A stretch of DNA of 64,000 nucleotides from Candidatus Parcubacteria bacterium (GTDB lineage: Bacteria; Patescibacteriota; Patescibacteriia; Patescibacteriales; UBA12075). The translations under genes were made by a program, and so were the position numbers. The notes beneath the pieces are model-generated. The model was not told the DNA's origin. It ran no database searches and worked only from the letters and a program-made list of their open reading frames with translations. The stretch is from NCBI GenBank assembly GCA_963814275.1, contig CAWFCE010000001.1:3307-67306 (forward strand). Reading direction: 5' to 3'. Within the stretch, counting starts at the first letter, position 1; each line of letters starts with the position of its first letter. Shown one piece after another: positions 538 through 42,517 of the stretch.

Positions 538-3500
538 AGTACAAGCGGGTTGGTGGGATGACAGCTGGAGTTACCGCAAAGCGATCGTGATCAATCACAG
601 CTACGTAACAGGTGATTTGGAGAATTTTCCAGTACTCATTAGTTTGACAGACACCTCCCTCGGCAGCCACGCCCAGGTGGACGGCGATGATATCATCTTT
701 ATTTCCGACAACGGCCAGAAATTCTCGCACGAGATCGAAGCCTTCGCCACTTCGACCGGCGTGCTGGTGGCCTGGGTGAAGGTACCGCAATTATCCAGTA
801 CCGTCGATACGCCGATCTATATGTATTATGGAAACGCGGGAGCGGGGAATCAGGAGGATGTAGCGAATGTATGGGATGAGAATTACAAAGGAGTTTGGCA
901 TTTGCGCGACAGTTCAACCGCGTCGACTTCGGAGAGCACGGGACGGGCCGTACCGTTGCAGGTGATGACCGGAAACGAATCGACCGGAACAGGCAAGGAC
1001 GACGGAGCGATGCTGGTCAATGCCAACGGCGAAGGTATGTATTACGATGGGGATTATCATATAAATTCCCAGGGTAGCATCGGCTTTTGGTATAAGGAAA
1101 CCGTAAATTGCACTACGTATAATAATTTCTTTTCCGACAACGACGATGGCTATCAATTCAGCCTGATGAGAAACGCTGACGGCGGAGCGGGCGACCAGCA
1201 TCTTATCTTCTATGTCAATGGAGATGCTGCATATTTCGATACCGCGCCTAATGTATTCAATGGAGGATGGCATTACATAAACGTAACCTGGGACGATGCC
1301 GCCAACCAGAGGAAGATCTTCGTTGACGGCTCTCAGCAGGATTCCGATACTTCTTCGTTTTCACTGGGAACCCAGGGCGAGATACTGTTGATCGGCCAGG
1401 GCGATGATTGGTGGTGGACGCCGATAGATGGTTATTTGGATGAATTTCGAATATCGTCGGAAGCGCGTTCAAATGAATGGTTTGCCGCTGAATATGCGAA
1501 CCAGAATGATCCGTCACATTTCTTTTCTATACAGTCCGAGGAGACCGGGCCGGGGCCGGTTGGGTACTGGTCCTTCGATGAAGGCCGGGGGCAGACCGCG
1601 CATGATGAAAGCGGACAAGGAAACGACGGCAGCCTGGGAGAGTCGGCTGCCAGCGGTCCCCAGGACCCCCAATGGCAGGACGCGAGCCAATGCGTCAGCG
1701 GCAATTGCTTGTGGTTCGACGGCGCGGACAACGTAGTGACCCTGGGCACCCCGGCTTCTTTGGGCAATCTGGACGAGAAGACAATTACCGCCTGGTTCCG
1801 CTTCAACGGCAGCGGCGGTGGAGGCTATGGCCGGATAATCCAAAAAGAGGATGAGGCCATCGGCGGCTGGGGGCTGTATTTGGACGGAAATAATCATGAT
1901 CTTATATATTTCCATGTATTCGACAGCACTGTCGGTATCTGGCATACGCCCGTAAATTCCGTCACGGCCACCAGTACCTGGTATTTCGTCGCTCTTACCT
2001 ACGACCGGACCGATGCCGGGAACGATCCGGTGATCTACCTGAACGGCGTAGCGCAATCGGTCGTCAGACAGCAGGCGCCTGAAGGAAGCGCCAAGGATGA
2101 CCTGGCCCAGCCGGCCTACATCGGCAACCGCTACAATTCGGGCAATTATGACCGGGCATTTGACGGCAATCTCGACGAAGTCAAGATCTACCCCTACTCC
2201 CGCACGGCGGATCAGATCCGGCAGGACTACGCCGCCGGCCTGGCTGGGATCAAGTCCAATTCTGGTGTGACCGCCAGCTTCGGCTCCCGCTCCGACTCGT
2301 GGATGAGCGACGGGCTGGTCGGGTATTGGAAATTCGATGAACCGGTAGGGTCATATGATGATGACAACGGCTATGAAGACGCAATCGATTCTTCCGGCAA
2401 CGGTCGAACCGGCGACGCAAACGGAAATGCCGACGTATCTGACGGGAAGTTCGGCAACGGCGCCGCTTTCGACGGCACTACAGATTATTTAAGTTATGCC
2501 ACGAACGATTTCGGAAATATATTTACAATTAGCGTATGGGCGAAACCGGGTAATGTTTCCAATATTGAAACCATTATTGCTAATACGGTCGGCGGGGGAT
2601 CGAATGACGGTTTTAAGCTATATATCAACCATTATTTGACGAATAACAGAGCGATCGAATTCGAGACGGGAAACGGAGGCGATGTGTCTACTAGTCTCAC
2701 AGAAGACGGGACGATCGGGTTTTCCCAATGGAACCATATCGTGGTTGTAGTTAACGAAATACTCGGTAAAGCGGCAATTTATGTTAACGGCATAGATCAG
2801 ACGAAAGATAGTGATATTTTAACAGATTTTAAAACCAGCGGTACCTGGCGAATCGGCTCATTTATGGACAATCAGTATTCATTCAACGGCAAAATCGACG
2901 AAGTCCGCATCTACAACCGCGCCCTGTCCGCGGACGAGGTGAAGAAATTATACGACTGGGCGCCGGGGCCGGTGGCGTGGTGGAAGTTCGACGAGAAGAG
3001 CGGAACGACCGCCTACGACTCGATCGCTTCAACGACATACTCGGGCGGTAACCACGGGACACTCGGCACTACGACTGCCAGCCAGCCGGCCTGGACACAG
3101 GGAGAATACGGCGGAGCGCTCAGATTTGACGGCAGTGACGATTTTATAGAATTGCCCGCAAAAGACGATTTGAATATAGCCGGCGCGATAACGATTTCCG
3201 CTTGGGTAAAAACCACGTCAGCGATAGCCGGGATCTTCGGCGGGCATTATTACACTGATCCTTTTAACGGTTATAGCATCTTTATCGGCGGCGGCGGGGT
3301 TTCTGACGGTAAAATCACCTTTTGGAGCTCTGCATACGGTTCGTGGGTGGCCTCCGACTCTACAGTCAATGACGGCAACTGGCACCATGTGGCCGTTGCT
3401 GTCTCCGGTTCAAGCGCGACATTTTATCGCGACGGCGTGAGCAATGGCACAAAAACTTCAGCACAACCGGATTCGTATTCCGGCATCAGGGCAATAGGCG

Positions 3501-5128
3501 CCAGATCGGACGGTGCATATCCTCTCGACGGTCTGATCGACGATGTCAAGATCTACAACTACGCCCGCACCCAGAAGCAGATTTTGGAAGATATGTCCGC
3601 CCGAGGCGGATCCGCCTCGGGCGGAGGCGCTTTAAATTTTCCCGTCCTCCACCTGACCTTCGACGAGGGCTACGGCGATACGGCTTTTGATTCTTCGATA
3701 TTCGGGAATAACGGCACGCTCAATGCCGGCGGGTCCGGGGATAATGACACGACGGCTAAAATGTGGGATTTGAACGGCAAATTCGGGAGGGCGATGGAGT
3801 TCGATGGGGTGAACGATCGTGTGGTCGTCGCACATGATACGGCCTTCGATATTACGTCGGATATCACCTTATCCGCATGGGTCAAACGAGATACTATTAA
3901 CGGCACTTACGACTCGATCATCGGCAAACATAACAATTCGGTATGGGATTATAACCTTTTCATATGCGGCACGGGATCTTCGTGCTACCCTGCCCATGAC
4001 GATCAATTGGTCTTTGAATCGGATGCGACCGATAAGCTTTACTCGACCGAGGCGATCACCGATAACGATTGGCATTTGGCGAGTTTCACCAGATCGGGAG
4101 ATGAGTATACCTTCTATATCGACGGCGTCCCGGCCGGCGGAGGGACGAACGGAACCGCATTTGATGCCGATAGTTATTCGATATATATCGGCACGGATGT
4201 TACGACGGTTACGGACACGTACTTTGACGGCCTGATGGACGAGATCTATGTATACAATTACGCCCTTTCTGAGGACGAGATAAAAAAGCTTTATAACGGT
4301 GGTATGGCTGCGGTTATGGGGGCACCCTCGACCCCTTCGGCAAGCTCAGGGCAGGCTGCCACTTCCAGTTTTTCCAAAAGTATAGAATATTGTGTACCTG
4401 GCAGCCTGGACTACTGCGCGCCGCCGGTCGGGGAATGGAAGTTCGATAAGAAGAGCGGGACCACGACTTATGATACTTCCGGGAACGGGAACGACGGTTA
4501 TTTCGTTTCCGCGGATACGAGCCCCGTACACCGCGGCGCCAACTACTGCCATGCCGGCGCCTGCCTGCAGTTTGACGGGAGTGACGACACTGTCTACACC
4601 GCGGATTCCAGCCTGCTTCATATGAATAATTCCGGGTCCATAACTTTTTCAGCCTGGATAAATACCGGCGGATATCTTTATTCTTCAGACGGGCAGGATA
4701 TAATCCGCTACGATGATGATGACAGCGGGGATGGCGATAGTCCGAACGATAGAAATCTGTATTTATTGAGAATCTACCACCCTTCCGATAAAATTGAATT
4801 TACATACGGGCCGTCTTCCGGGTTGTCTTCGATAAATTCGAATGCCACAATCAGCAGCAACCGATGGTATCACGTCGAAGTTACCAGAGACACGGGGAAT
4901 GATACGGAAAATATTTATATTAATGGCATATTGGATAATAGCGAGACCGATACCACAACCGGGTCTTGGGAAACGACCGGACAATATATGAAAATAGGGG
5001 CGTTCTGGGATGGCGGCAGTGATTATGAATTTTTTCACGGCCTGATCGACGACGTGCGTGTCTACAACTACGCTCGCACCCCGGCGCAGATCGCCTGGGA
5101 CTATAACCGGGGCGCGCCGATCGCCTAG
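428..5128 (+). CDS. DUF2341 + multi-LamG (Laminin_G_3) surface protein, paralog 1; ends at a premature TAG before the last module
   Basis: The ORF is 1566 aa. It has an N-terminal Lys-rich segment plus a hydrophobic anchor (ILAAVFTLAILAVGALWYF). The DUF2341 signature is WWDDSWSYRKAIVINH..DGDDIIF..WVKVP..IYMYYGN. Repeated ~200-aa units follow with FDGxxDY..SAWxK..WHH..LYxDG..IDEVRIYN, the LamG pattern. The TAG at 5126-5128 sits where paralogs read Glu/His. Confidence 0.9.
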   Translation: MKYIDKKSIKTILAAVFTLAILAVGALWYFHHGNVKGVQAGWWDDSWSYRKAIVINHSYVTGDLENFPVLISLTDTSLGSHAQVDGDDIIFISDNGQKFSHEIEAFATSTGVLVAWVKVPQLSSTVDTPIYMYYGNAGAGNQEDVANVWDENYKGVWHLRDSSTASTSESTGRAVPLQVMTGNESTGTGKDDGAMLVNANGEGMYYDGDYHINSQGSIGFWYKETVNCTTYNNFFSDNDDGYQFSLMRNADGGAGDQHLIFYVNGDAAYFDTAPNVFNGGWHYINVTWDDAANQRKIFVDGSQQDSDTSSFSLGTQGEILLIGQGDDWWWTPIDGYLDEFRISSEARSNEWFAAEYANQNDPSHFFSIQSEETGPGPVGYWSFDEGRGQTAHDESGQGNDGSLGESAASGPQDPQWQDASQCVSGNCLWFDGADNVVTLGTPASLGNLDEKTITAWFRFNGSGGGGYGRIIQKEDEAIGGWGLYLDGNNHDLIYFHVFDSTVGIWHTPVNSVTATSTWYFVALTYDRTDAGNDPVIYLNGVAQSVVRQQAPEGSAKDDLAQPAYIGNRYNSGNYDRAFDGNLDEVKIYPYSRTADQIRQDYAAGLAGIKSNSGVTASFGSRSDSWMSDGLVGYWKFDEPVGSYDDDNGYEDAIDSSGNGRTGDANGNADVSDGKFGNGAAFDGTTDYLSYATNDFGNIFTISVWAKPGNVSNIETIIANTVGGGSNDGFKLYINHYLTNNRAIEFETGNGGDVSTSLTEDGTIGFSQWNHIVVVVNEILGKAAIYVNGIDQTKDSDILTDFKTSGTWRIGSFMDNQYSFNGKIDEVRIYNRALSADEVKKLYDWAPGPVAWWKFDEKSGTTAYDSIASTTYSGGNHGTLGTTTASQPAWTQGEYGGALRFDGSDDFIELPAKDDLNIAGAITISAWVKTTSAIAGIFGGHYYTDPFNGYSIFIGGGGVSDGKITFWSSAYGSWVASDSTVNDGNWHHVAVAVSGSSATFYRDGVSNGTKTSAQPDSYSGIRAIGARSDGAYPLDGLIDDVKIYNYARTQKQILEDMSARGGSASGGGALNFPVLHLTFDEGYGDTAFDSSIFGNNGTLNAGGSGDNDTTAKMWDLNGKFGRAMEFDGVNDRVVVAHDTAFDITSDITLSAWVKRDTINGTYDSIIGKHNNSVWDYNLFICGTGSSCYPAHDDQLVFESDATDKLYSTEAITDNDWHLASFTRSGDEYTFYIDGVPAGGGTNGTAFDADSYSIYIGTDVTTVTDTYFDGLMDEIYVYNYALSEDEIKKLYNGGMAAVMGAPSTPSASSGQAATSSFSKSIEYCVPGSLDYCAPPVGEWKFDKKSGTTTYDTSGNGNDGYFVSADTSPVHRGANYCHAGACLQFDGSDDTVYTADSSLLHMNNSGSITFSAWINTGGYLYSSDGQDIIRYDDDDSGDGDSPNDRNLYLLRIYHPSDKIEFTYGPSSGLSSINSNATISSNRWYHVEVTRDTGNDTENIYINGILDNSETDTTTGSWETTGQYMKIGAFWDGGSDYEFFHGLIDDVRVYNYARTPAQIAWDYNRGAPIA

Positions 5129-5851
5129 TGGACGTTCGATGAATGCAGTGGCGGCACGATCCATGACTTCGCCCCCGGCGCGGACGGCAAGGCGGCGAAC
5201 GCCAATCCCGGCACAGCTCCACCTCGGTACGACCGGCGTGACCGCCACCGGCACCTGCGCTTCGTCGTCGGACAGTTTCTGGTACAACGGGAAAGATGGG
5301 AAAGTTGGGCATGCGGGGAGTTTTGACGGGATGAGCGATTATATAGATTTAGGCTCAAATCGAGATTTAGAACCTTCAAGTATAACATTTTCATTTTGGA
5401 TAAAAAGAACTACTAGTTGGAATGATGTAAGGTATGGTTTTATTTGGACTAAGGGTAACTCCTGGAATAATAATGGTATTACTATTAGGGTTTATGACCT
5501 TGGCGGACAAAAGAATTTTTGTACTTAGGCTGATGGACTAAATTCATGCCGCGTACTTGCTGAACCGGATGAATATTATCCTTTAAATACTTGGGTACAC
5601 ATGACAATGGTATTTGATACATATAATGATGCAAGTTGGATTTACAAAAATGCCATATCCCAGCCAGTCAATTATTGGAATTCACCGCAAACTCTAAGCA
5701 AGACCAGTAACACCAAATATTTGGGATATAATCAGGCTACGGCGAATACATTAACGGTCTGATCGACGACGTGAAGATATGGAATTATGCTTTAACTCCC
5801 GAGCAAGTGCGTACTGAATATAACGGCGGGGCGGTTAAATTCGGGAATTGA
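5129..5851 (+). pseudogene. Decayed last LamG module and tail of paralog 1
   Basis: Homology to paralog C-terminal modules continues here (WTFDECSGGTIHD.., QLHLGTTGVTATGTCASSSDSFWYNGKDGK, ..GLIDDVKIWNYALTPEQVRTEYNGGAVKFGN*). It is interrupted by TAG 5126, a frameshift at ~5210, TAG 5526 and a frameshift at ~5745. Confidence 0.85.
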
Positions 5852-6025
5852 TGAAGAATTTATAATTTATAATTTATACCTAGTGGCACTTTGTAAGTTG
5901 TAAACAATTTGTAATATCAAATACTAAATTTATAAACGTTTATTAATTAAATATTACAAATTGGAAATTGTTTATAAATTACAAATTACGCCTTACAAAT
6001 TAAAACCATTTTTATATCAATAAAC
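5852..6025. repeat. AT-rich imperfect inverted-repeat spacer (TTTATAAAT/TACAAAT word family)
   Basis: The arms TTGTAAACAATTTGTAA.. and ..ATTGTTTATAAATTACAAATTAC are complementary. The spacer is homologous to 11944-12070, 19242-19368, 19465-19591 and 43279-43439. Confidence 0.8.
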
Positions 6026-9100: not shown

Positions 9101-11943
9101 CTGGCGGCAACCACGGAGCGTTCGGCGGGGGCAGTAATAATCCGTCCTGGAGCACTGGAAAATACGGCGGGGCATTGAAGTTTGCCGGGAATGAATATAT
9201 TGATGCAGTCCATAGCCCCAAACTGGAGTTCGGCACCGGAAGTTTTACAGTATCGTATTGGATGAAACCATTCGCCTATCCGACTGATCAGGATTCATCT
9301 ACCGCTGGTTTGATCAATAAACAAGATGCCAGCCAGGCTACCGGCTGGCGGTTTGATTTTTTTAGTAATGGTGATTTTATATTCGCTAATGATGACGGAA
9401 CGACAGAACCACAGGAGTATATGGATGATGACGTGGTTTTGAACCAATGGTATTACGTTACCGGTGTTGTAGACCGAACCACTGACCATAATAAGTTGTA
9501 TATCAACGGGCAATTGCAAAGTGATATAGACGATATTTCCGGGTTGGGCAGTTTCGATTCGGCCGCTAGTAACGACCTATATATCGGTGCCGGTCGGTCG
9601 GATCATCGTTACTTCGACGGCCTGATCGATGATGTCCGCATCTACAATTACGCCCGTACCCAGAAGCAGATCCTGGAGGATATGAACGCCGGTGGACCGG
9701 CATTGAAGCAGCCGGTATTGCATTTGTCGTTCGACGAGGGCTACGGGTCGGTGGCCCATGATGATTCGATCTATGGGAACAACGGTACGCTGGTATCCGG
9801 CGGTTCAGGCGGTAATTCAACCGTAAGCGCGATGTGGGACCTTAACGGAAAATTTGGGAAGGCCATGGAGTTTGACGGGACGAATGATTATGTCTACACT
9901 ACGAATTCATTCGACTACCCGGCGGATTTCACAGTGTCAGTTTGGTTCAAGACGACAGTGGCGTCCGGCCACAAGCTGGTGGGCTTTGAGAACTTGCAGA
10001 CCGGAACCGGCAGTGGCAGTCATAGCGGACATATTTGGATGGGGACAGATGGCAAAATACGCTATGGGTGGTGGACTGGTTCAGCGTCTGTAAATTTGGC
10101 GTCCACTGCCACGCTGAACGACGGCCAGTGGCATCATGCAGTAGGCACTTATAGTATGGCTCCTCTGGGCAGCCTGTATATAGATGGGGTCTTACAGGAG
10201 TCGAGTAGCTTAGCAATGGGATCGTATTCATCTGTATATTGGAGGGTTGGCAGCTGGCGTCTGGCCACCAGTTATTGGACGAACGGCAGCGATGGTTATT
10301 TTAACGGTCTGATAGATGAGGTCAAGGTCTATAATTATACCCTGTCCGAGGACGAGATCAAGACGCTATATAACAGCGGCGCGAGCGCTGTCATGGGCGA
10401 TGATGCCAGCCGGGACAATGACGGCGCAGTCGTGACGGGCGCGTCCAAAGAATATTGCATACCTGGCGACACGGCGCAGTGTGACCCGCCGGTGCTCGAT
10501 CTCGATTTTGACGAAAAGACCGGTCAATACACCTATGATAAGAGCGGACATGGCAACAACGGCACCCTCGGTTCCGGCGCCACCGCCGATGCGGCCGACC
10601 CGGTTTGGAAATCGGCCCGCTTCTGCCATACTGGCGCCTGCTTATTGTTTGACGATAATGATGATTATGTCAGTATCAGTGACAATTCGAGTTTAACATT
10701 CGGTAACGGAACGGATGATCAGCCGTTTTCCGGATCAGCTTGGGCTTATATGTATGATGCCACAACTTTTAGCGTGCTTTATAAAGGGCAAAACGATATC
10801 GGCAACCTAGAATGGTGGTTTGGAACGGACGATGGTTCTGACAATCTAATGTGCAAACTTTATGATAATATAGGGAATCAGGGAATTTATCAACTAAGCG
10901 ATACTGCCTTAACCGATTATGAGAATACCTGGATAAATCTGGCATTTACCTATGACGGAACCGAATCGGAGGACGGCATCAAGCTTTATCTCAACGGTGT
11001 CCTGCTGGATTCTACCGGAACTGAACAGGGCACTTATGTAGCCATGCATGATGTCTCCAACGCGCCTTTGTCTATCGGCGCTTTTGCTCCGGAAGATCCG
11101 GTATATCGTGGTTTTTCTGATGGCCTGATTGACGGCGTGAAGATTTACAATTACGCCCGCACACCGGCGCAGATCGCCTGGGATTATAATAAGGGCGCGC
11201 CGATCGCGGAGTGGGATTTCGACGAATGCTCGGGCTCTACGATCCATGACGCCAGCGGCAACGGTAATAACGGCCAGCTTTATCTCGGTACCACCGGCGT
11301 CACCGCCACCGGTACTTGCGCCTCTTCTTCGGATAGTTTTTGGTATAATGGGAAGGATGGCAAGCGGAATGCGGCGGGGAGTTTTGATAATACTGATGAT
11401 ATTGTCCGGATACAGGATTCCGGAGCCGATAGTATATTGGATTTCGGCAGCGGCGATTCTATTACGATTGGTGCCTGGGTTAACATTTATGATTTTACGG
11501 ATGATTATCAAGTATTGGCCGGCAAGACATCAAGCGGCAATTATTATTTTGAAGTCAGTCCGGAATGCAGCAACGGAGATGCGAACTGCCGGATGTATTT
11601 CATATATAGGAATGCGGCCAACACGGCATGGCGCGAAGCTACATCGGATAATTTATTATTGCATCGAAATGAATGGCAGTATGTGGCAGTCAGTTTTACT
11701 TTCGGCGATCCTGATACGATCAAATTTTATTATAACGGAATGATGGATGAAGGGCATTGGATCGGCGCTATCGGCAGCGACGCCCCAAGAGAAACGAATG
11801 AGGACCTCGTTATGGGCCGTAATATAAGCGGTGGTGAAAATTTTAATGGTCTGATTGACGAAGTGAAGATCTGGGATTATGCTTTGACTCCGGAGCAGGT
11901 CAAAACTGAATACAATGGCGGCGCAGTTAAATTCGGAAACTAG
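6184..11943 (+). CDS. DUF2341 + multi-LamG surface protein, paralog 2 (body intact, N-terminal anchor frameshifted away)
   Basis: The ORF is 1919 aa. The same frame is open from 6043 and encodes ..AGWWNDSWSYRKAIV upstream of the first start codon (GTG 6184). It has the full set of linker classes and the tail KFGN* (TAG 11941-11943). Confidence 0.85.
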   Translation: MIDHSYVTGDLENFPVLISLTDANLGTHAQTDGDDIIFISSNGQKLSHEIESFATSTGVLVAWVKIPSLSSTNDTQIFMYYGNAGVGNQEDAANVWDGDYRAVWHLPDSSASTDDSTINGVNLTNTGASPTDSGRAAGAMEFDGSSGFLKFSNDGQIGTAGTMSFWYKETTNCIGYEAFFGIENDDNGFGLERNGSDTQLFGYINSSIAFYNTANLFDGNWKYIAFTWNDVANLRSLIVNGSSQDSDNSSFSMGNINVIHIGDYYNGGNQIKGIMDEIRISSTIRSQQWLQTEFNNQNSPESFLAVQSEEVGPSPIGYWSMDEGYGTTVHDESGQGNSGTLSGGTWQDESMCISGKCLFFDGTNDYINIPDADSLNVTETTISAWVKSATTTAGKYIIGKDPAYVYNGVIGTDADDGAIDGSGGIGYQWEPSGESGNLGYMGEYVANNRYYGYFRFVLDQDIPSGATIDSATIDIYGHERWLWEVASDALRIWGHDSADAPLVNNKNDYPGDAGGTTLTDASTRWPLSGGLNWNDAGWNTSPDFKAIIQELVDDNGGLTENHHIQLWIAKDVLQNTGEEVGYEDYAYTGSQNLAELTINFSTSGGGAGATDVPYALSTAGGGQFMTMSSSTIYSATSTTDLNDNRWHYVSGTYDGSRMKIYIDGNLETINSNYTGDLPTKAGALHIGADYQTTPDNFFHGFIDEVKVYPYARTADQIKQDYAAGLAGVKSNNGVAASFGSKSDSWMTDGLVGYWKFDEPSTASTYEDSSGNGNIGTANDNASTTAGKFGNSAVFDGANDGVYTSKSVIELNTVTTCAWVNPETPGQFSSGTIIANGSYYLYMNTDSWIITSDARTTETYFNSIAPVLNSWQFVCVVRQADGIASLYVNGVQSGASQFTGTPEVAMWDDAIGNRGDDLFCFDGKIDEVRIYNRALSADEVKKLYEWAPGPVAWWKFDEKSGTTAYDSAASTTYSGGNHGAFGGGSNNPSWSTGKYGGALKFAGNEYIDAVHSPKLEFGTGSFTVSYWMKPFAYPTDQDSSTAGLINKQDASQATGWRFDFFSNGDFIFANDDGTTEPQEYMDDDVVLNQWYYVTGVVDRTTDHNKLYINGQLQSDIDDISGLGSFDSAASNDLYIGAGRSDHRYFDGLIDDVRIYNYARTQKQILEDMNAGGPALKQPVLHLSFDEGYGSVAHDDSIYGNNGTLVSGGSGGNSTVSAMWDLNGKFGKAMEFDGTNDYVYTTNSFDYPADFTVSVWFKTTVASGHKLVGFENLQTGTGSGSHSGHIWMGTDGKIRYGWWTGSASVNLASTATLNDGQWHHAVGTYSMAPLGSLYIDGVLQESSSLAMGSYSSVYWRVGSWRLATSYWTNGSDGYFNGLIDEVKVYNYTLSEDEIKTLYNSGASAVMGDDASRDNDGAVVTGASKEYCIPGDTAQCDPPVLDLDFDEKTGQYTYDKSGHGNNGTLGSGATADAADPVWKSARFCHTGACLLFDDNDDYVSISDNSSLTFGNGTDDQPFSGSAWAYMYDATTFSVLYKGQNDIGNLEWWFGTDDGSDNLMCKLYDNIGNQGIYQLSDTALTDYENTWINLAFTYDGTESEDGIKLYLNGVLLDSTGTEQGTYVAMHDVSNAPLSIGAFAPEDPVYRGFSDGLIDGVKIYNYARTPAQIAWDYNKGAPIAEWDFDECSGSTIHDASGNGNNGQLYLGTTGVTATGTCASSSDSFWYNGKDGKRNAAGSFDNTDDIVRIQDSGADSILDFGSGDSITIGAWVNIYDFTDDYQVLAGKTSSGNYYFEVSPECSNGDANCRMYFIYRNAANTAWREATSDNLLLHRNEWQYVAVSFTFGDPDTIKFYYNGMMDEGHWIGAIGSDAPRETNEDLVMGRNISGGENFNGLIDEVKIWDYALTPEQVKTEYNGGAVKFGN

Positions 11944-12166
11944 AAAAGAATTTATAATTTGTAATTTATAATTTGTAAACAATTTGTAATATTAAATTTG
12001 TAAAAGGTTTATAAATTATAAATTGGATATTGTTTATAAATTACAAATTACGCCTTACAAATTTTTTCCTGGCCTGATCGACGACGTGAAGATCTGGAAT
12101 TACGCTCTGACCGCCGAGCAGGTTAAACAGGAATACAATGGGGGAGCGGTTAGGTTCGGAGAATAG
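11848..12166 (+). repeat. 223-bp unit x1.4: gene tail (96 nt), hairpin spacer (127 nt), then an orphan tail copy at 12071-12166
   Basis: Positions 12071-12166 encode GLIDDVKIWNYALTAEQVKQEYNGGAVRFGE* with no upstream ORF. The spacing 11848 to 12071 is 223 bp, the same as in the 19146-19687 array. Confidence 0.85.
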
Positions 12167-12259
12167 TTGAAAAAGGATACAAGGATACAAGATACAAGGA
12201 TACAAACAATATTCAAATTTCAAATCACAAATATCAAACATTTAACAATATAATTAATC

Positions 12260-12652
12260 ATGGAAAACAAGGAGGAAAATAAAATATATGATTTGGAAGA
12301 AAGGACAACCATTTTTGCCCAGCGAGTAATCAGATTATGCCGAGCCTTACCAAAAGATTCGGTTAATAACCGGTTATCGGGACAAGCAGTCGGCTCATCA
12401 GGTTCGGTCGGTGCCAATTACCGGGAAGCCAATGATGCTCTGGGTAAAAAAGATTTTCTCCATCGTTTGCGGATAGCCAGGAAAGAAGCCAAGGAAACGA
12501 TCCATTGGCTAAAACTAATCGAAACCGCCAATCCGGAATTCAGTCCGAGAATGCAGGATTTGCATAAAGAAGCCAACGAAATAAAAAATATACTATCAGC
12601 GATAATCAATAAAACGGAGAAGAAAAATGAAAAAAAAATGAATTATGAATAA
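12260..12652 (+). CDS. Four-helix-bundle protein (23S rRNA intervening-sequence protein family, PF05635/TIGR02436; Avd-like fold)
   Basis: The ORF is 130 aa. The family pattern is YDLEERTxxFAxRVIRLCRALPK..NRLSGQAVGSSGSVGANYREAN..GKKDFLHRLRIARKEAKETIHWLKLI. Confidence 0.85.
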   Translation: MENKEENKIYDLEERTTIFAQRVIRLCRALPKDSVNNRLSGQAVGSSGSVGANYREANDALGKKDFLHRLRIARKEAKETIHWLKLIETANPEFSPRMQDLHKEANEIKNILSAIINKTEKKNEKKMNYE

Positions 12653-12714
12653 GGATGCAAAAAATATGTGTAAAGAAACAAGGATACAAGATACAAGAAA
12701 TATGAAAAAGAAAC

Positions 12715-12819
12715 AAGGATACAAGATACAAACAAATTACAAATTTCAAATCACAAATATCCAAACGGTTTGGAAAATTGGGATTTGAAATTTGTAATTT
12801 GTTTGTATCTTGTATCCTT
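12715..12819. repeat. Perfect 38-bp-stem hairpin (GGATACAAG word family) just upstream of paralog 3
   Basis: Positions 12715-12752 are the exact reverse complement of 12782-12819. The loop contains the mini-palindrome CCAAACGGTTTGG. A third related arm at 12173-12235 lies upstream of the four-helix-bundle gene. Confidence 0.9.
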
Positions 12820-12859
12820 GTAACTTGTATCCTTAAAACCGTTATACAAAACGATAAAC

Positions 12860-15280
12860 ATGAATATACTCAAATCAAAACATTTCAAAACCATCCTGAT
12901 CTCGATCACCGCCCTCGCGCTGATAACCGCCGGGATTTTGTATTGGACAAGAAAAGACGCGACTCCCGCGGAGGCAGGTTGGTGGAACGATTCCTGGTCC
13001 TACCGCAAAGCGATCGTGATCAATCACGGCTACGTCACAGGGGATCTGGAGAATTTCCCGGTGCTTATTTCCCTGACTGATGCCAGTTTAGGAACCCACG
13101 CGCAGGCGGACGGGGATGATATTATTTTTATTTCTCAAAATGGCCAGAAATTATCGCACGAGATCGAAGCGTTTGATAACACAACGGGCAAACTGGCAGC
13201 CTGGGTGAAGGTGCCAAGCTTAAGCAGCGCGGATGATACGCAGATATTTATGTATTACGGCAATGCGGGCGTCGGGAATCAGGAGGATGCGGCGAATGTC
13301 TGGAACGAGAGCTATAACGGCGTCTATCATCTTGCCGGCGGGAGCGGGGCCGACTCGACCGGCTATCACCGCGACGGGACCGCCTCGATCGGCGCTTCCT
13401 CGACCGCCTATATCGGCGGCAGCGGCGTCTTTGCCACATTCGATCCGGGTGATCTCGACACCACCTGGGGCGGCGGCGGATACGCGGATTACGATAGCGG
13501 CGGCAACGATGCCGCATATGACGCCGTACAGGCGGCCGACGGGTCGGTATTCGTCGCCGGCTACTATGTGGGGAGCGGCGGGATCGACTGGATGATCCGG
13601 AAATACGCGCCGGGCGGCGCGATCGATACCGCCTGGGGGGACAACGGGATGATCATATATTCGAGCAGCGGCAGCCATAATGATTACGCCCAGGCAATCG
13701 CCCTCGATAGCGGCGGTTCGATCTATGTCGGCGGCTATTACTACAATATCGCCAATTCCGACCCGGACTGGATGGTCCGCAAATACGACGCCGACGGCAA
13801 GCTCTGCAACGGCTCGGGCACGAGCTGCACCTGGGGGCCGGGCGATGCCGGCTATGTTACCTACGAAAACGATACAACAACGCCATTACCCGACGAGATT
13901 ACCCGGCTTTACGCGGATGCGGACGGAAAATTATACGTCGGCGGTTTCTATTACCACCAAAGCTACAGCGACAACGACTGGCTCATCATAAAATACACGG
14001 CCACCGGCACCCCGGACTGGACCTGGGGCGGGGGCGACGGGATGATCGATTACCAGAACAATTACGGCGATAACAAAGTGCAGGGTATGGCCGTATCGAC
14101 CTCGACCGGGGAGCTTTATGCGGCCGGACCGGACAATGACGAATGGGGCGATCCGTTCTGGACAATGCGTAAATATACGGCGGCCGGCGTGCCGGACACG
14201 ACCTGGGGTACAAACGGGATCGTTACATATTATGCCGCGGCCTATAGCCAAGCCGTGGCAACGGCGCTTGCTTTATCCGCAACGGGCGAGATCTATGTGA
14301 CCGGCACTTACGATACGAGTAATGGCTGGATGATGCGCAAGTACGATGCCGACGGCAAGCTCTGCAACGGCTCGGGCACGAGCTGCTCCTGGGCGGGCGG
14401 CAACGGTTATGTAACATTTGCCGACAACTCGTCCAATTCTATGGACTTGGCGCTTAATTCGTCAGACGAGCTGTATGCCGCCGGCTCGGTCCGCAACGCC
14501 AGCGACGACTGGATGATCCGGAAATACGACTCAAGCGGCGTACTCGACGCCTCCTGGGGCAGCGGCGGCATCGTCGAGGAAGACCTGACTGCCGGCACCG
14601 ACAAGATCCAGAGTATTTATCTGGCGGCGGACGGAACGGTATTTGCCGCCGGCGTTTATAATACCTCGGACTGGATGGTGCGCAAATATTCTCCCGGCGG
14701 CGGCGGTTCGGTCGCGATCGGCCCGGCCGGCAGTATCAAAAGCGCGTCTTTCTGGATCAAGGCCGGTTCGACCAGCGAGCAGATCATCGATATAAACGGT
14801 AATGCCTATATCCAGGTAGCCGGCGGCACGCTCTCCGCTCCGGGCTGGTCTTCGCCGACGATCTATGTCGACGGCACGGCCGGCACGGCGCTCGACACCG
14901 GCTGGCATCTGGTCACTGTTACCTCGGCCACGGCCCTGGACGCCACCTCGACGGATCTGGGCGTCACTCCCGGCGGCTATTACAACGGCCTCTTGGACGA
15001 AACCAGGTTCAGTTCGACCGAATTGAGCGCCGCCTGGATCGCGACCGAATACAATACTGAGAACGCGCCGGAAACATCCCTCTCGGTCCAAGCCGAGGAG
15101 ACCGGGCCGGGGCCGGTGGGGTATTGGTCGTTCGACGACCCCTCGGCAGGCTCGGAGCAGGAGGGCGGCGTTCACGATGAGAGCGGCCAGGGTAATCATG
15201 GAACGAATTACGGGGCAGTGCAAGCAGGACGAGAGCATGTGCGTCTCCAGGAAGTGCCTCAGACTCGACGGTACGAATGA
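12860..15280 (+). CDS. Paralog 3 fragment A: anchor, DUF2341, 7-blade beta-propeller-like repeats, LamG
   Basis: The ORF is 806 aa. Seven repeats of ..DxxWGxxG..(Y/V)..DG..Y(V/A)(A/G)G....DWM(I/V)RKY..xG.. span ~13451-14700. Confidence 0.7.
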   Translation: MNILKSKHFKTILISITALALITAGILYWTRKDATPAEAGWWNDSWSYRKAIVINHGYVTGDLENFPVLISLTDASLGTHAQADGDDIIFISQNGQKLSHEIEAFDNTTGKLAAWVKVPSLSSADDTQIFMYYGNAGVGNQEDAANVWNESYNGVYHLAGGSGADSTGYHRDGTASIGASSTAYIGGSGVFATFDPGDLDTTWGGGGYADYDSGGNDAAYDAVQAADGSVFVAGYYVGSGGIDWMIRKYAPGGAIDTAWGDNGMIIYSSSGSHNDYAQAIALDSGGSIYVGGYYYNIANSDPDWMVRKYDADGKLCNGSGTSCTWGPGDAGYVTYENDTTTPLPDEITRLYADADGKLYVGGFYYHQSYSDNDWLIIKYTATGTPDWTWGGGDGMIDYQNNYGDNKVQGMAVSTSTGELYAAGPDNDEWGDPFWTMRKYTAAGVPDTTWGTNGIVTYYAAAYSQAVATALALSATGEIYVTGTYDTSNGWMMRKYDADGKLCNGSGTSCSWAGGNGYVTFADNSSNSMDLALNSSDELYAAGSVRNASDDWMIRKYDSSGVLDASWGSGGIVEEDLTAGTDKIQSIYLAADGTVFAAGVYNTSDWMVRKYSPGGGGSVAIGPAGSIKSASFWIKAGSTSEQIIDINGNAYIQVAGGTLSAPGWSSPTIYVDGTAGTALDTGWHLVTVTSATALDATSTDLGVTPGGYYNGLLDETRFSSTELSAAWIATEYNTENAPETSLSVQAEETGPGPVGYWSFDDPSAGSEQEGGVHDESGQGNHGTNYGAVQAGREHVRLQEVPQTRRYE

Positions 15281-18120: not shown

Positions 18121-19241
18121 CAGCCTGTTCCTGGATCAAACCTTATGCCGGCGATATAGTAAGAGTAATTGTTTCTAATGTTGATTTCCTATTTTATGTT
18201 TATGTAGGCAGTGATCCGACCGAAAAGCTAGTTGTTACAAGCGACAATGGCAGCCATGGCGTATCATCAGACACTCATTCCATAACTTTAAACGCATGGC
18301 AATATGTTTGCGCTAAACGGTTAAGCGATGGGAAAACCACTTTTTATATTAATGGTATCCAATCCGGTGCCGCCGACCAGGATAGTGGGACTCCTACTGA
18401 TATCTCTAGTACAGGTTTAAGTATCGGAGCGAGATATGATGGGGCTTATAGTTTTTCAGGCTTGGTCGATGACGTGAAGATCTATAACTACGCCCGTACG
18501 CCGGCGCAGATCGCCTGGGATTTTAACGGCGGCAAGCCGGTCGCGGAGTGGGATTTCGATGAATGTTCCGGCGGCACCATCCATGACAGCGCCGTCTCCT
18601 GGAACGGCGGCACGGCCAACAACGGCCAGCTTTATCTCGGCACCTCCGGCGTCACCGCCACCGGCACTTGTGCTTCTTCTTCGGATAGTTTTTGGTATAA
18701 TGGGAAGGACGGGAAAGTGAATCATGCGGGGAGTTTTGATGGGACGAATGATTATGTTGATATAAGTGATCTGGACTTTATGGACGGTGTAAGCCAATTG
18801 ACAATTTCCGCTTGGATGAAACGCAATACCCTTAATGCTAAGGTAAACTTAGGCAAGTATTTCAATTCAAATAACTATACCACAATAACCATGTATACCG
18901 ACGGAAATATTATTTTTGACATAGGCAATGGGGCGGGCCAAAACGGTTATGTGGCAAACAACAATACGGACTGGCAGCATGTCGTGTTAGTATTCGACGG
19001 CACCCAATCAGGTAATGCGAACCGTTTGAAAGGGTATATAAACGGCGTACAGCAAGAATTGAATTGGGACGGAACTATCCCATCCAGCACTTATAATAGT
19101 AGCGCTAATTTTATGATAGGGAGAGTATATACACACTATACCAACGGCCTGATCGACGACGTGAAGATCTGGAATTACGCTTTAACTCCCGAGCAGGTTA
19201 AACAGGAATATAACGGGGGAGCGGTTAAATTTGGAAACTAG
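18054..19241 (+). CDS. Paralog 3 fragment D: last two LamG modules and tail
   Basis: The ORF is 395 aa and contains YNYARTPAQIAWDFNGGKPVAEWDFDECSGG and the tail WNYALTPEQVKQEYNGGAVKFGN*. Confidence 0.65.
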   Translation: MQFDGNDDYISTGNDPVQTNTITACSWIKPYAGDIVRVIVSNVDFLFYVYVGSDPTEKLVVTSDNGSHGVSSDTHSITLNAWQYVCAKRLSDGKTTFYINGIQSGAADQDSGTPTDISSTGLSIGARYDGAYSFSGLVDDVKIYNYARTPAQIAWDFNGGKPVAEWDFDECSGGTIHDSAVSWNGGTANNGQLYLGTSGVTATGTCASSSDSFWYNGKDGKVNHAGSFDGTNDYVDISDLDFMDGVSQLTISAWMKRNTLNAKVNLGKYFNSNNYTTITMYTDGNIIFDIGNGAGQNGYVANNNTDWQHVVLVFDGTQSGNANRLKGYINGVQQELNWDGTIPSSTYNSSANFMIGRVYTHYTNGLIDDVKIWNYALTPEQVKQEYNGGAVKFGN

Positions 19242-19687
19242 AAAAGAATTTATAATTTGTAATTTATAATTTGTAAACAATTTGTAATATTAAATTTGTA
19301 AAAGGTTTATAAATTATAAATTGGATATTGTTTATAAATTACAAATTACGCCTTACAAATTTTTTCCCGGCCTGATTGACGATGTGAAGATCTGGAATTA
19401 TGCGTTAACTCCCGAGCAGGTTAAACAGGAATATAACGGGGGAGCGGTTAAATTTGGAAATTAGAAAAGAATTTATAATTTGTAATTTATAATTTGTAAA
19501 CAATTTGTAATATTAAATTTGTAAAAGGTTTATAAATTATAAATTGGATATTGTTTATAAATTACAAATTACGCCTTACAAATTTTATCCCGGCCTGATC
19601 GATAACGTGAAGATCTGGAATTATGCGTTAACTCCCGAGCAGGTTAAACAGGAATATAATGGAGGAGCGGTTAAATTCGGTAATTAG
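19146..19687 (+). repeat. Tandem array of the 223-bp unit (96-nt gene tail + 127-nt hairpin spacer), 2.4 copies; orphan tails at 19369-19464 and 19592-19687
   Basis: Unit starts are at 19146, 19369 and 19592. Each orphan keeps an open 32-codon frame ending in TAG. Differences between copies are mostly synonymous third-position changes. Confidence 0.9.
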
Positions 19688-19699
19688 ATTACTATAGGC

Positions 19700-19870
19700 A
19701 TCTCCCGCGCCCGCTACCCCTCCGCCCCGCAGCGTGCGGGGCACCTCCCCTTCGTAAGGGGAGGAATCGCTAGATTACAACGGCTTTTCTCCCCTTACGA
19801 AGGGGAGATGTCCCGCTTGCCCGCCGTAGCCTTGGCGTAGGAGGGAAGGGACAGAGGGGTAGCGGGTGTG
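19700..19870. repeat. GC-rich nested palindromic leader of the DUF559 gene
   Basis: The outer arms CCGCTACCCCTC / GAGGGGTAGCGG are complementary. Internal hairpins are CCCCGCA-GCG-TGCGGGG, CTCCCCTT-CGT-AAGGGGAG and CTCCCCTT-ACG-AAGGGGAG. The left half is the reverse complement of window positions 1-78. Confidence 0.8.
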
Positions 19871-19898
19871 GCCGGAGGGATCAAACACGAATAAAAAT

Positions 19899-20249
19899 AT
19901 GACGATTATATACAATCAAGCCAAATACCGTCTATATAGAAAAATGCTGAGGAAGAACGGCACGGTGGCGGAATGGATGTTATGGCAGAGGTTGAAAAAC
20001 AAACAGCTGGGGGCCAGATTCAGGCGGCAATACAGCATCGGTTATTATATCGCCGATTTTTGTTCGCCACGCAAAAAATTAGTGATTGAACTGGACGGCG
20101 GGGTACATGACGACGAAGGCGCTAGATACTACGATAAAGAACGGCAAGAAACCATCGAAGAGATGGGTTTCAAAATATTACGTTTCAGAAACGAAGAAGT
20201 GGAAAAAGATATCGAAAATGTCGTAAATAAAATTAAAACATTCATATAA
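19899..20249 (+). CDS. DUF559 (Vsr-like) endonuclease-domain protein
   Basis: The pattern E..LWQRLKNKQLG.RFRRQYSIGYYIADFCSPRKKLVIELDGGVHD......DKERQETIEEMGFKILRFRNEEV is the classic DUF559 pattern. I prefer ATG 19899 over the ORF-track GTG 19866, which lies inside the hairpin leader. Confidence 0.9.
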   Translation: MTIIYNQAKYRLYRKMLRKNGTVAEWMLWQRLKNKQLGARFRRQYSIGYYIADFCSPRKKLVIELDGGVHDDEGARYYDKERQETIEEMGFKILRFRNEEVEKDIENVVNKIKTFI

Positions 20250-26955: not shown

Positions 26956-27606
26956 ATGAAGAACGGTTTATTTAAAAACAAATACCGCATCGATTCCAGC
27001 AGGTTAAAAGGACATGATTATTCCGGTGATGGATTGTATTTTATAACGATCTGCACGCATGACAGGGAATTATTTTTCGGCGACGTGGTCGATAATAAAA
27101 TGATTTTGAATGATTTGGGGCAAATGGCGGAAAAATATTGGTTGGAAATCCCACAGCATTTTGAAAATATAGAATTAGACGAATTCATCATCATGCCGAA
27201 CCATGTTCACGGGATAATCGTGATCGATAATACCGCGGATGGCGGAAAACACCGGGTGCGATGCGATGCCCGCGGTTTCACCGATGCCCGCGTCCGTAGA
27301 GACGCGATTAATCGCGTCTCTACGGACGCGGCGCAACATACGGACACGAATGACAATCACACCGGCGGCATTACGGGAAAATATAATCCAATGGGCAAAA
27401 AATCGTTGGGCGAAATTGTCCGGTGGTTTAAAGGCCGTTATAAATTTGAATCAAAAACCATCAATCCCGCATTTGCCTGGCAAACCAGATTTTATGACCA
27501 CGTTGTCCGCAATGAAAATTCGTTGGATAATATCAGACAATATATCATAAATAACCCGGCCCAATGGGAAAATGACCGGAATGATCAGGAAAATATTTGG
27601 ATGTGA
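26956..27606 (+). CDS. IS200-like / REP-associated tyrosine transposase (RayT-type Y1 HUH enzyme), intact copy
   Basis: The ORF is 216 aa. It has FKNKYRIDSSRLKGHDYS..GLYFITICT, the HUH motif in MPNHVHGIIVI, and the C-terminal WQTRFYDHVVRNE carrying the catalytic-type Tyr. GGAGGG lies 6 nt upstream of the ATG. Confidence 0.8.
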   Translation: MKNGLFKNKYRIDSSRLKGHDYSGDGLYFITICTHDRELFFGDVVDNKMILNDLGQMAEKYWLEIPQHFENIELDEFIIMPNHVHGIIVIDNTADGGKHRVRCDARGFTDARVRRDAINRVSTDAAQHTDTNDNHTGGITGKYNPMGKKSLGEIVRWFKGRYKFESKTINPAFAWQTRFYDHVVRNENSLDNIRQYIINNPAQWENDRNDQENIWM

Positions 27607-35025: not shown

Positions 35026-35168
35026 TAATCCAATGATCCAATGATCCAGTGACCCAATCAATATTTAATATCAAATATATAATTTTCAAACCGACGAAGT
35101 GTTTAAATATTTGATATTGAATATTAGATATTGATTGGATCATTGGGTTACTGGATTATTGAAAATTA
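35026..35168. repeat. AT-rich imperfect inverted repeat (CCAATGAT/AATAATCCA word family) upstream of the dead RayT copy
   Basis: The left arm AATAATCCAATGATCCAATGATCCAGTGACCCAATCAATATTTAATATCAAATAT pairs with the right arm ATATTTGATATTGAATATTAGATATTGATTGGATCATTGGGTTACTGGATTATT. Confidence 0.8.
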
Positions 35169-35484: not shown

Positions 35485-35700
35485 GTCCGTGGTAGAGACG
35501 TTGCAATGCAACGTCTCTACGCGGCGCAACCCACCGAACCCGAATGCCGGTCTGGCGATATCAATCGCACCGTCCGTGGTAGAGACGTTGCAATGCAACG
35601 TCTCTACGCGGCGCAACCCACCGAACCCGAATGCCGGTCTGGCGATATCAATCGCACCGTCCGTGGTAGAGACGTTGCAATGCAACGTCTCTACGGACGC
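35485..35700. repeat. Tandem 87-bp repeat x2.5, each unit carrying the palindrome GTAGAGACGTTGCAATGCAACGTCTCTAC
   Basis: Unit starts are at 35485, 35572 and 35659 (period 87 = 29 codons). The repeat occupies the position of the intragenic palindrome of the intact RayT (27291-27328). Confidence 0.9.
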
Positions 35701-41033: not shown

Positions 41034-41073
41034 TTAAACAAAACGTTGATAATTTTTAAATAAATGATAACGA

Positions 41074-41211
41074 ATTTTTAAATTTTGTAATTTTTAATTT
41101 TTAAATAAATTTTAAATCTTAATTTTTAAAGTCTAACTAAGTAGTACAGTAGTTTAAGACATTAAAAATTTAGATTTATTTACAAAATTAAAAATTAAAA
41201 ATTTAAAAATT
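41074..41211. repeat. AT-rich imperfect inverted repeat (TTTTTAAA/AATTTT word family) downstream of paralog 7
   Basis: The left arm GAATTTTTAAATTTTGTAATTTTTAATTTTTAAATAAA.. is complementary, with bulges, to the right arm ..TTTATTTACAAAATTAAAAATTAAAAATTTAAAAATTC. It may function as a terminator. Confidence 0.65.
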
Positions 41212-41252
41212 CTATCACGATGAAAGTTTCAGGCAATTATGTCTGTTTTTTG

Positions 41253-42010: not shown

Positions 42011-42030
42011 ATATATTGTTTATCTATTAT

Positions 42031-42517
42031 CCAATTTTCAATAATCCAATAATTCAATCAATATTTAATAATTAATTTTCAATTAATATATGGCAAGGAG
42101 GAAATGCTCTTTCGGTTATGACCTCGAAGAAAGACTAGCCCAATTCGGGGAACAAGTGATCGATCTGGCGAAAAAACTGCCCAAGAACTCAATTAACCAA
42201 AGACTCGTACCCCAGGCAGTGAGTTCCGCCGGTTCGTCTGGTGCCAATTACTGCGAAGCCTGTGAGGCGGAAAGCAAAAAAGATTTCCGCCACAAGATCG
42301 GAATTACCAAAAAAGAAATACGCGAAAGCAAGCATTGGCTAAGGCTTATCGCTCGAGCTAATGAACAGTATGCCGAGGATTGCCGCCGCCTCTGGCAGGA
42401 GGCCCACGAACTGCTACTGATATTTTCCAAAGTTCTACAGTCAAGCAAAACCAATTAAATATTAGATATTATATATTAATTGAAAATTGGATTATTGGAT
42501 TATTGAAAATTATTAAT
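42031..42517. repeat. Inverted-repeat bracket around the second four-helix-bundle gene (arms 42031-42089 and 42457-42517)
   Basis: The outer 21 nt AATTTTCAATAATCCAATAAT (~42033-42053) pair with the complementary 21 nt at ~42495-42515. The inner AATTTTCAATTAATATA (~42073-42089) pairs with TATATTAATTGAAAATT (~42471-42487). Confidence 0.75.
42090..42458 (+). CDS. Four-helix-bundle protein (23S rRNA IVS protein family / Avd-like), second copy
   Basis: The ORF is 122 aa. The pattern is YDLEERLAQFGEQVIDLAKKLPK..NQRLVPQAVSSAGSSGANYCEACEAESKKDFRHKIGITKKEIRESKHWLRLI. Confidence 0.85.
   Translation: MARRKCSFGYDLEERLAQFGEQVIDLAKKLPKNSINQRLVPQAVSSAGSSGANYCEACEAESKKDFRHKIGITKKEIRESKHWLRLIARANEQYAEDCRRLWQEAHELLLIFSKVLQSSKTN

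Follow-up and report, generated by a model that had tools for sequence, protein, structure and literature searches.

A putative intervening-sequence-type cassette outside rRNA: a PF05635 gene between heptamer-rich inverted repeats in a Parcubacteria genome

We analyzed a stretch of 64,000 nt (the window) from Candidatus Parcubacteria bacterium (assembly GCA_963814275.1, contig CAWFCE010000001.1, positions 3,307-67,306 of the forward strand). Positions 12169-12843 of the window contain a gene for a 130-amino-acid four-helix-bundle (4HB) protein, enclosed by long terminal inverted repeats. We propose that this region is a palindromic cassette of the kind that is known from 23S rRNA as an intervening sequence (IVS), that here it lies outside of rRNA, and that it is read through and then cut by RNase III (a putative step). 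We think that this proposal is probably correct. From sequence comparisons, the region belongs to a family of self-contained cassettes of about 0.5-0.7 kb, which carry a PF05635 (Avd-like) gene between terminal inverted repeats of 40-70 nt. By analogy, we consider such a spacer cassette to be the same kind of unit as a 23S IVS that bears an open reading frame (ORF).

A PF05635 gene between complementary arms

The 4HB gene lies at 12260-12652 (+ strand). Its product matches PF05635 (23S_rRNA_IVP; 59.4 bits, E = 4.5e-16) and TIGR02436 (82.5 bits, E = 2.3e-23). Both scores are above the curated cutoffs (33.8 and 24 bits), so the family that the first-pass annotation had assigned to this ORF is confirmed. 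The nearest solved structure is that of the pentameric protein 2RLD (E = 1.5e-14). We found 5040 homologues, with identities of 70-80% across Patescibacteria.

The two arms that had been described as bracketing the ORF are present. The left arm (L1, the 5' terminal inverted repeat, 12169-12238, + strand) consists of GGATACAAG/GATACAA tandem units followed by CAAATTT-type heptamers, and it is A/C-rich and G-poor. The right arm (R, the 3' terminal inverted repeat, 12768-12843, + strand) is T/G-rich and is complementary both to L1 and to a second left-arm copy, L2, that lies between the ORF and R (12707-12766, + strand; repeat family D4, inverted repeat I1). Over 12707-12764, L2 directly repeats L1 (12181-12238) with 79% identity, and a partial third copy of the left arm (AAAGAAACAAGGATACAAGATACAAG) lies at 12672-12698 (+ strand; repeat family D3, inverted repeat I14). 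L1 and R pair over 66 nt (12172-12237 with 12778-12843, 76% complementary) with 540 nt between them. L2 and R pair over 59 nt (12708-12766 with 12768-12826, 92% complementary) with just 1 nt between them, which makes an almost loop-less palindrome. Within this palindrome is a perfect stem (12713-12752 with 12782-12821); the hairpin had been recognized in the first-pass annotation, with a length of 38 bp, and it is in fact 40 bp. Exact GGATACAAG words are confined to 12175-12832 of the window, and other matches have one mismatch and occur at chance level.

The window contains a second cassette. Its left arm (42026-42091, + strand; inverted repeats I2, I9, and I15) has AATAATCCAAT-type words, its gene (42090-42458, + strand; PF05635/TIGR02436) encodes a 122-amino-acid protein with 43% identity to the first one when the homologues are aligned, and its right arm (42461-42511, + strand) forms a duplex of -43.3 kcal/mol with the left arm. 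The cassette begins 16 nt past a stop codon. Its arms are unrelated in sequence to those of cassette 1, and its minimum free energy (MFE) fold closes the whole ORF by a stem of about 45 bp. When we scored the complementarity of the flanks of 23 genes in the window, the two 4HB genes scored 72 and 51, while the other 21 genes scored at most 29.

Enclosing repeats are a feature of the gene family

For comparison, we collected 80 loci with relatives of the 4HB protein from one-genome-per-species contigs (from Patescibacteria, Omnitrophota, Desulfobacterales, Planctomycetota, and others). At each locus, we aligned the 160 nt upstream of the ORF with the 220 nt downstream and counted an inverted repeat if the local alignment score was at least 30. 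Such repeats were found in 54 of 78 scorable loci, as compared to 5 of 78 for a parallel-orientation control. Flanks from different loci also formed inverted repeats in 53 of 234 pairs, and these cross-locus pairs outscore the parallel-orientation control because the arms share words. With the same pipeline applied to all ORFs in these loci, 45 of 70 4HB genes had enclosing repeats, versus 7 of 153 neighbouring genes (Mann-Whitney p = 8e-20), and one of the 7 is itself a distant PF05635 gene (in locus L021). An earlier measure, RNAduplex energies, gave a median z of -3.5, with z < -3 in 45 of 78 loci. We replaced these energies with the local alignment scores, as long interior loops made them hard to read. 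Thus, the likeness to 23S IVSs that the first-pass annotation had pointed out, a stem that encloses a PF05635 ORF, is real and is specific to this gene family, by both the window and the homologous-locus controls.

None of the 20 best-scoring loci overlaps rRNA, and a universal 23S motif was not found in any of the 80 loci. Similarly, Rfam and tRNA searches of the 64-kb window found no rRNA, no tRNA, and no member of any Rfam family, which agrees with the placement of the cassette outside rRNA and between protein-coding genes in the first-pass annotation. Searches with PADLOC and PHROGs gave no matches.

Two other genes among these loci have heptamer-type complementary flanks: nusB in L056 (4519-4956, score 36) and a gene for a 329-amino-acid protein in L076 (1067-2056, score 35), which we take, from reading its sequence, to be a candidate member of the DHH family. 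The arms may occasionally enclose other cargo, or there may be solo arms near these genes. In L040 (2562-3351), two PF05635-like ORFs (2562-2978 and 2965-3351) are in tandem and overlap by 14 nt; neither has clear arms.

The arms are built of heptamers and covary

The arms consist of degenerate 7-nt units, NNNNCAA on the sense 5' side and the complement on the 3' side. Across 54 loci, the sense strand of the 5' arm has 1237 A, 433 C, 118 G, and 417 T, and A exceeds T in 53 of the 54 (p = 6e-15). Both arms have a period of 7 nt (autocorrelation of 0.41 at lag 7 and 0.36 at lag 14, versus 0.26 in control DNA), and there are 223 instances of consecutive CAA triplets that are spaced by exactly 7 nt. 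The heptamer vocabulary is common across phyla even though the arm sequences themselves differ: GATACAA occurs in 18 of 79 loci, TAACCAA in 21, and ATTCCAA in 20. The median arm length is 44 nt (with arms of up to about 100 nt), and the outer ends of the arms lie about 46 nt before the ATG and about 59 nt after the stop codon.

When 14 cassettes from different genomes are aligned, the CAA positions do not vary at all, and covariation is seen at the positions that do. Cells of the alignment were paired in 91.2% of cases, versus 83.9% in shuffles, and cells with changes on both sides numbered 27, versus 11.8 in shuffles; in both cases, none of 500 shuffles reached the observed value, although these counts are not probabilities because the sequences are related and the structure was derived from the same alignment. 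If the 3' partner is slid by 1-3 columns, just 32-51% of cells are paired. So the structure of the stem is kept between genomes, and this is accompanied by covariation.

These results bear on the idea that the arms are chance complementarity in generic, low-complexity, AT-rich intergenic DNA, which the first-pass annotation had named as one of the findings that would undo its interpretation. There are several other AT-rich palindromes in the window, and the shared words in the arms of different loci would also fit with this idea. It is extremely unlikely, given that enclosing repeats are so much more common around 4HB genes than around their neighbours, with the window control in agreement, and given the covariation, the slid controls, and the sharp boundaries described below. 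We consider chance complementarity to be ruled out: what we found instead is covariation and conservation across the family.

The heptamers continue as far as the start codon and across it, often as ...CAATGACCAA.... In 17 of 58 loci, the ATG lies within the stem, and in 21 more, the stem ends at most 12 nt upstream of the ATG (38 of 58 together). There is no Shine-Dalgarno sequence (SD) upstream of the first 4HB gene of the window, and most of the related loci lack one as well. Low-complexity tails at the N- and C-termini of homologues in the databases (such as MTNNQ..., ...KKQDTN..., and ...NNQDTRNKNQ) are translated heptamer arms, which implies that the annotated starts and stops of this family are often placed inside the repeats. 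Annotators should be cautious about the low-complexity tails of 4HB proteins for this reason.

Two other features near these start codons can be mentioned. Both 4HB genes in the window have AAGGAGG a few codons inside the gene (12270-12276 and 42095-42101), with no SD before the annotated ATG and with no in-frame start codon downstream at a usable distance. Also, a perfect TATAAT (12249-12254) ends 5 nt ahead of the ATG of the first 4HB gene. From its position in the sequence, it would fit with a leaderless transcript that begins at the ATG. We did not see it in the window's second copy, nor in most of the related loci.

The cassette is a discrete, duplicative unit

One genome of Moranbacteria (GCA_034522495.1) contains two paralogous cassettes, L081 and L082, that are 94% identical over 605 nt. 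One, at 1.01 Mb, lies between two glycosyltransferase genes, and the other, at 0.33 Mb, has polA on one side and a permease gene on the other. The identity extends from the outer end of the left arm, which is of the GGATACAAG type, to the outer end of the right arm, which is of the CTTGTATCC type, and the DNA outside of the arms is unrelated. The two copies also differ by an indel of one 8-nt GATACAAG unit. Across genomes, when 500 nt of flank is compared, nucleotide similarity stops 40-90 nt before the ORF and 45-95 nt after it, and the transition from flank to heptamer arm is sharp. The arms of cassette 1 align with those of L081, L082, L002, and L001, with common termini of roughly AAAAAAGGATACAAGG...CCTTGTATCCTTTTTT; judging from the alignment, the right terminus of cassette 1, CCTTGTATCCTT, is homologous to the termini of L081, L082, and L002. 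Because similarity is lost at the outer ends of the arms, both between paralogues and across genomes, the arms and the ORF together form a discrete duplicative unit. That the arms are, on this comparative evidence, the ends of such a cassette was missed in the first-pass annotation.

The arms also seem prone to duplication: in L001 and L003, a left-arm-like repeat recurs after the ORF, and in L037 and L070, the right arm is duplicated. In cassette 1, the near-perfect, loop-less L2-R palindrome looks either as if it had recently been copied at the DNA level or as if it were a miniature cassette that lacks the ORF; in the latter case, 12707-12843 would be the ORF-less form.

Sharp boundaries like these could also be expected if the cassette were purely a mobile element at the DNA level, akin to a miniature inverted-repeat transposable element (MITE), with the 4HB gene as a passenger, with the heptamers as sub-terminal binding sites for a transposase that acts in trans, and with the RNA stem as incidental. 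Terminal inverted repeats, sharp boundaries, and dispersed, nearly identical copies are features that the cassettes have in common with MITEs and Correia-like elements; such elements are non-coding miniatures, whereas the cassette carries an intact and conserved 130-amino-acid ORF. The perfect 40-bp L2/R palindrome beside the decayed L1/R pair suggests copying of DNA, and a RAYT-like gene (RAYT is short for REP-associated tyrosine transposase) and REP-like palindromes are present in the same window. Against such an element, we found no consistent target-site duplication at eight inspected sets of boundaries or at L081/L082, although termini with runs of A or T blur the exact ends. In addition, no cognate transposase was found; the arm sequences of different members of the family are wholly different and yet their pairing is kept; and the relatives that reside in 23S rRNA are known substrates of RNase III. 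Overall, a purely DNA-level element is possible but, we think, unlikely.

The paralogues also bear on whether the stem could be a vertically inherited regulatory structure. The gene would then be an ordinary chromosomal gene without mobility, and the 5' and 3' ends of its mRNA would form a panhandle for stability or translational control. Covariation, conservation of the stem across the family, a start codon in or beside the stem, and a highly conserved protein are all what would be expected. Such inheritance is hard to reconcile with two 94%-identical copies in unrelated contexts of one genome, with similarity between genomes that ends at the arm ends while the flanks are unrelated, or with the lack of a G-U bias in the stem (see below). 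We view it as quite improbable.

The cassettes are oriented and packed as if transcribed with their neighbours

In cassette 1, the upstream flank (12023-12166, + strand) includes an orphan 3' end of a LamG gene. This 103-nt fragment (12064-12166; repeat family D2) is 79% identical to 11841-11943, is preceded by another palindrome (11944-12063), and directly adjoins L1. The downstream gene (12860-15280, + strand) encodes an 806-amino-acid protein with DUF2341 and DUF5122. So the cassette is flanked by LamG_3/DUF2341 surface-protein genes, with a 1919-amino-acid protein encoded upstream and the 806-amino-acid protein downstream. It begins 3 nt past the stop codon of the orphan LamG fragment and ends 17-24 nt before the next ATG, and this gap leaves little promoter space for the downstream gene outside of the arm. 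A scan of 11800-13000 for sigma-70 promoters and intrinsic terminators found nothing above shuffles.

The other loci are similar. The median gaps between the cassette and its neighbours are 68 nt upstream and 88 nt downstream, or roughly the length of an arm, and the left end of the cassette often directly follows the stop codon of the upstream gene. In 51 of 69 loci, the cassette shares its strand with the genes on both sides. If the neighbours are co-directional, then the cassette is in the sense orientation in 51 of 54 loci (p = 1.5e-12); the baseline co-orientation of adjacent genes in the same loci is 0.76. Given this bias and the short gaps, the co-transcription that the first-pass annotation had considered is plausible. 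And even if the cassette moves as DNA, the sense bias and the tight packing mean that the stem would be transcribed in any case.

Folding of cassette 1 and a model for its processing

As suggested in the first-pass annotation, we predicted the structure of the cassette transcript. The cassette 1 region folds into a structure far more stable than those of shuffled sequences (z = -8.7, with none of 20 shuffles as good). Two mutually exclusive pairings had been proposed, of R with either L1 or L2, and both exist: the duplex energies are -64.6 kcal/mol for L1:R and -71.8 kcal/mol for L2:R. The choice between them is lopsided, with L2-R favoured by about 25 kcal/mol, and it is not conserved. The MFE structure of the full region (-172.7 kcal/mol) combines L2-R with a short outer stem, in which only the outermost 11-13 nt of R pair with the start of L1. 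Among the 79 loci that we scanned, just 2 others have a local hairpin next to the ORF, and only that of L018, from the complete genome of Ca. Velamenicoccus archaeovorus LiM, uses arm-type words, so we rejected the idea of a conserved L1/L2 switch between alternative pairings.

We propose the following model for the cassettes as IVS-type units. Since the cassette seems to lack space for its own promoter and is consistently in the sense orientation, it would be transcribed by read-through, which is the simplest mode of transcription. With hardly any G and little U, the 5' arm is unable to fold on itself, and while the RNA is being synthesized, this open, A/C-rich arm may be a landing site for ribosomes that does not depend on an SD. 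About 400 nt later, the 3' arm would emerge, and the arms would zip into a duplex of 40-60 bp over or next to the start codon. A duplex of that length would be a target of RNase III, which is known to cut the stems of 23S IVSs, and the length and quality of the stems in the window are compatible with this (40 bp and perfect in copy 1, about 45 bp in copy 2). The cut would free the small mRNA from the transcripts on either side and would curb its translation. In cassette 1, L2 would capture R, so the cut would be expected in the 40-bp L2-R stem, which separates the 4HB gene from the gene downstream. If correct, the model accounts for the fixed strand asymmetry of the arms, the missing SD, and the position of the stem.

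Several observations weigh against this proposal. First, about a third of the loci have weak arms or none. Second, if L2 is blocked, the MFE of cassette 1 rises to -148.1 kcal/mol, so the pairing that encloses the ORF is 24.6 kcal/mol worse than the L2-R hairpin; in the predicted structures, the ORF-enclosing stem of cassette 1 is largely pre-empted by L2-R. Third, in the one RNA-specific test, mismatches in the arms do not show an excess of G-U over A-C (48 versus 43, p = 0.68). This means that selection on RNA pairing is not demonstrated, and neutral decay of DNA repeats fits the data better. A G-U to A-C ratio of about 1 is also what a purely DNA-level element would give. Fourth, the orientation bias could also stem from a strand-specific mechanism of DNA insertion. 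Fifth, no transposase or integrase was found, and we argue for mobility solely from the boundaries and the paralogues. Finally, the cutting of the cassette stem by RNase III is purely inferred. Given the null result for G-U pairs, we hold the DNA-level part of our proposal, the cassette, with more confidence than the RNA-processing part.

A more far-reaching version is that PF05635 cassettes are a widespread, hitherto undescribed class of small, autonomous selfish elements, and that the Avd-like pentamer recognizes its own heptamer arms, in the transcript or in DNA, and promotes their propagation. The panhandle RNA, as trimmed by RNase III, may be copied by a reverse transcriptase that acts in trans, or there may be a single-stranded hairpin intermediate. 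The classical 23S IVSs would then be rare copies that landed in rRNA. We consider this version to be speculative and rather unlikely.

Comparison to known elements

The closest known relatives of the cassettes are the ORF-bearing 23S IVSs of the type found in Leptospira, Coxiella burnetii, Xanthomonas, and Brucella. They have the same protein family in the loop (PF05635, or "S23p"), terminal complementary sequences that enclose the ORF, and a sporadic distribution that suggests transfer. The sizes are also similar: the Coxiella IVS is 428-444 nt, while a typical cassette is the ORF plus about 105 nt. In the Coxiella IVS, a 28-bp stem is cut by RNase III, with ends mapped to the middle of the stem, and a variable number of GACAGAT heptamers abut the start codon of S23p (PMC4990558). 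Tandem heptamers that run to the start codon, along with a poor or absent SD, are thus another similarity (PMC4990558). On the other hand, the cassettes described here lie in spacers between protein-coding genes instead of within 23S rRNA (at helix 25 or 45), their protein is strongly conserved instead of decaying, and their arms are longer (median 44 nt, maximum about 100 nt, versus 28 bp). Also, excision by RNase III was shown for 23S IVSs, while for the cassettes it is putative.

The Correia/NEMIS elements of Neisseria and the ERIC/IRU elements of enterobacteria are small intergenic elements bounded by inverted repeats, and they are co-transcribed with their neighbours. RNase III cuts the hairpins of their terminal inverted repeats, which alters mRNA stability. 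These elements are the nearest precedent that we know of for the role in processing that the first-pass annotation had proposed. They are 100-150 bp, have no ORF, duplicate a TA target, and are present in hundreds of nearly identical copies per genome. In contrast, the cassettes carry a conserved gene, have diverged arms, and show no consistent target duplication at the boundaries that we inspected.

REP/RAYT elements and the palindrome-associated MITEs of IS200/IS605 are similar to the cassettes in being palindromic intergenic repeats with a bias in strand or orientation. They do not duplicate their target, and we saw no consistent duplication at the inspected cassette boundaries. (REP is short for repetitive extragenic palindrome.) REPs, however, are short palindromes (20-40 nt) that fold by themselves, while the cassette arms cannot fold singly and pair across about 400 nt of coding sequence. 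Furthermore, the heptamer vocabulary of the cassettes is unrelated to the REP-like sequence in the window.

PF05635 also includes Avd, the accessory protein of diversity-generating retroelements (DGRs), which has a homologous four-helix-bundle fold. The 4HB gene could be avd if the 3' ends of the LamG genes were the variable repeat (VR) and template repeat (TR) of a DGR. Repeated LamG 3' ends do adjoin a 4HB gene in the window, and L053, one of the related cassettes, carries the avd gene of a canonical DGR. This locus, from a metagenome-assembled genome of Moranbacteria, has a complete DGR at 1844-5646, with a target gene that contains a VR (2626-2808), avd (2983-3345), a TR (3983-4165), and a reverse transcriptase gene (RVT_1, 4405-5646). 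The VR and TR are 183 nt and 92% identical, and heptamer arms of about 100 nt enclose this avd as well (inverted-repeat score 72). Unlike the Avd of DGRs, 81 of 82 related loci lack a reverse transcriptase within the 2-3 kb of flanking sequence that we fetched. There was no reverse transcriptase among those ORFs of the window that we scanned with Pfam, and a phmmer search with the L053 reverse transcriptase over the window and the related loci matched L053 alone. Mismatches among the LamG fragments occur at all bases and show no specificity for adenine (at most 7 of 16), so these repeats are not a DGR. With neither a reverse transcriptase nor an adenine-specific TR/VR pair, a DGR at this locus is largely refuted and is very unlikely.

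Our literature searches, which cover older subscription papers incompletely, turned up no account of PF05635 genes that are enclosed by a stem outside rRNA, so a prior mention is possible. A 2024 survey of rRNA insertions in the candidate phyla radiation (CPR) mentions only rare 23S_rRNA_IVP ORFs within rRNA (PMC11270868). What is new here is the generalization of the IVS-type unit to a discrete, heptamer-armed cassette that is found in operon spacers of several phyla. The PF05635 gene is among the commonest unexplained small genes of bacteria, with thousands of matches in Patescibacteria alone, and the origin of 23S IVSs has been a question since about 1990. If this gene normally travels as a heptamer-armed cassette, then the IVS is a special case of a general element. 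This would provide a concrete sequence signature for finding such cassettes. It would also suggest roles that can be tested: the punctuation of operons by RNase III in organisms that have few regulators, and mobility or RNA binding as functions of Avd-like proteins outside of DGRs.

Other repeats and small cassettes

The last 103 nt of LamG genes, including the stop codon, are tandemly repeated at two places in the window, with 1.5 units at 11841-12166 and 2.5 units within 19140-19690 (at 19146-19690). Between the copies, which are 77-91% identical, there is an AT-rich palindrome of 120 nt (ATTTGTAATTTATAATTTGTAAAC...) that is nearly the same each time, which gives a period of 223 nt. This looks like an element that inserts at the end of a gene while supplying a replacement 3' end, or else like silent 3' cassettes.

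More generally, AT-rich palindromes of 100-140 nt without an ORF occur after or before most of the giant genes in the window (5890-5985, 11944-12063, 19254-19361, 19474-19587, 35031-35161, 41072-41212, and 43283-43436). Some of them use heptamers of the cassette arms (ATTACAA, ATTATAA), with the T/G-rich arm first. A different, REP-like palindrome (GTAGAGACGTTGCAATGCAACGTCTCTAC), with GTAG...CTAC ends, is present in three exact copies that are 87 nt apart (35492-35694). The RAYT-like gene is a 216-amino-acid ORF (26956-27606) that matches the REP-associated tyrosine transposase with 57.8 bits, which is below the cutoff of 80 bits.

Finally, a GC-rich inverted repeat of 31 nt (19736-19816) precedes a DUF559 (Vsr-like endonuclease) gene (19866-20249). 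In L032 (2100-2660), a DUF559 gene is enclosed by GC-rich inverted repeats (score 102). It may be that DUF559 genes form another type of small cassette with hairpin boundaries in these genomes.

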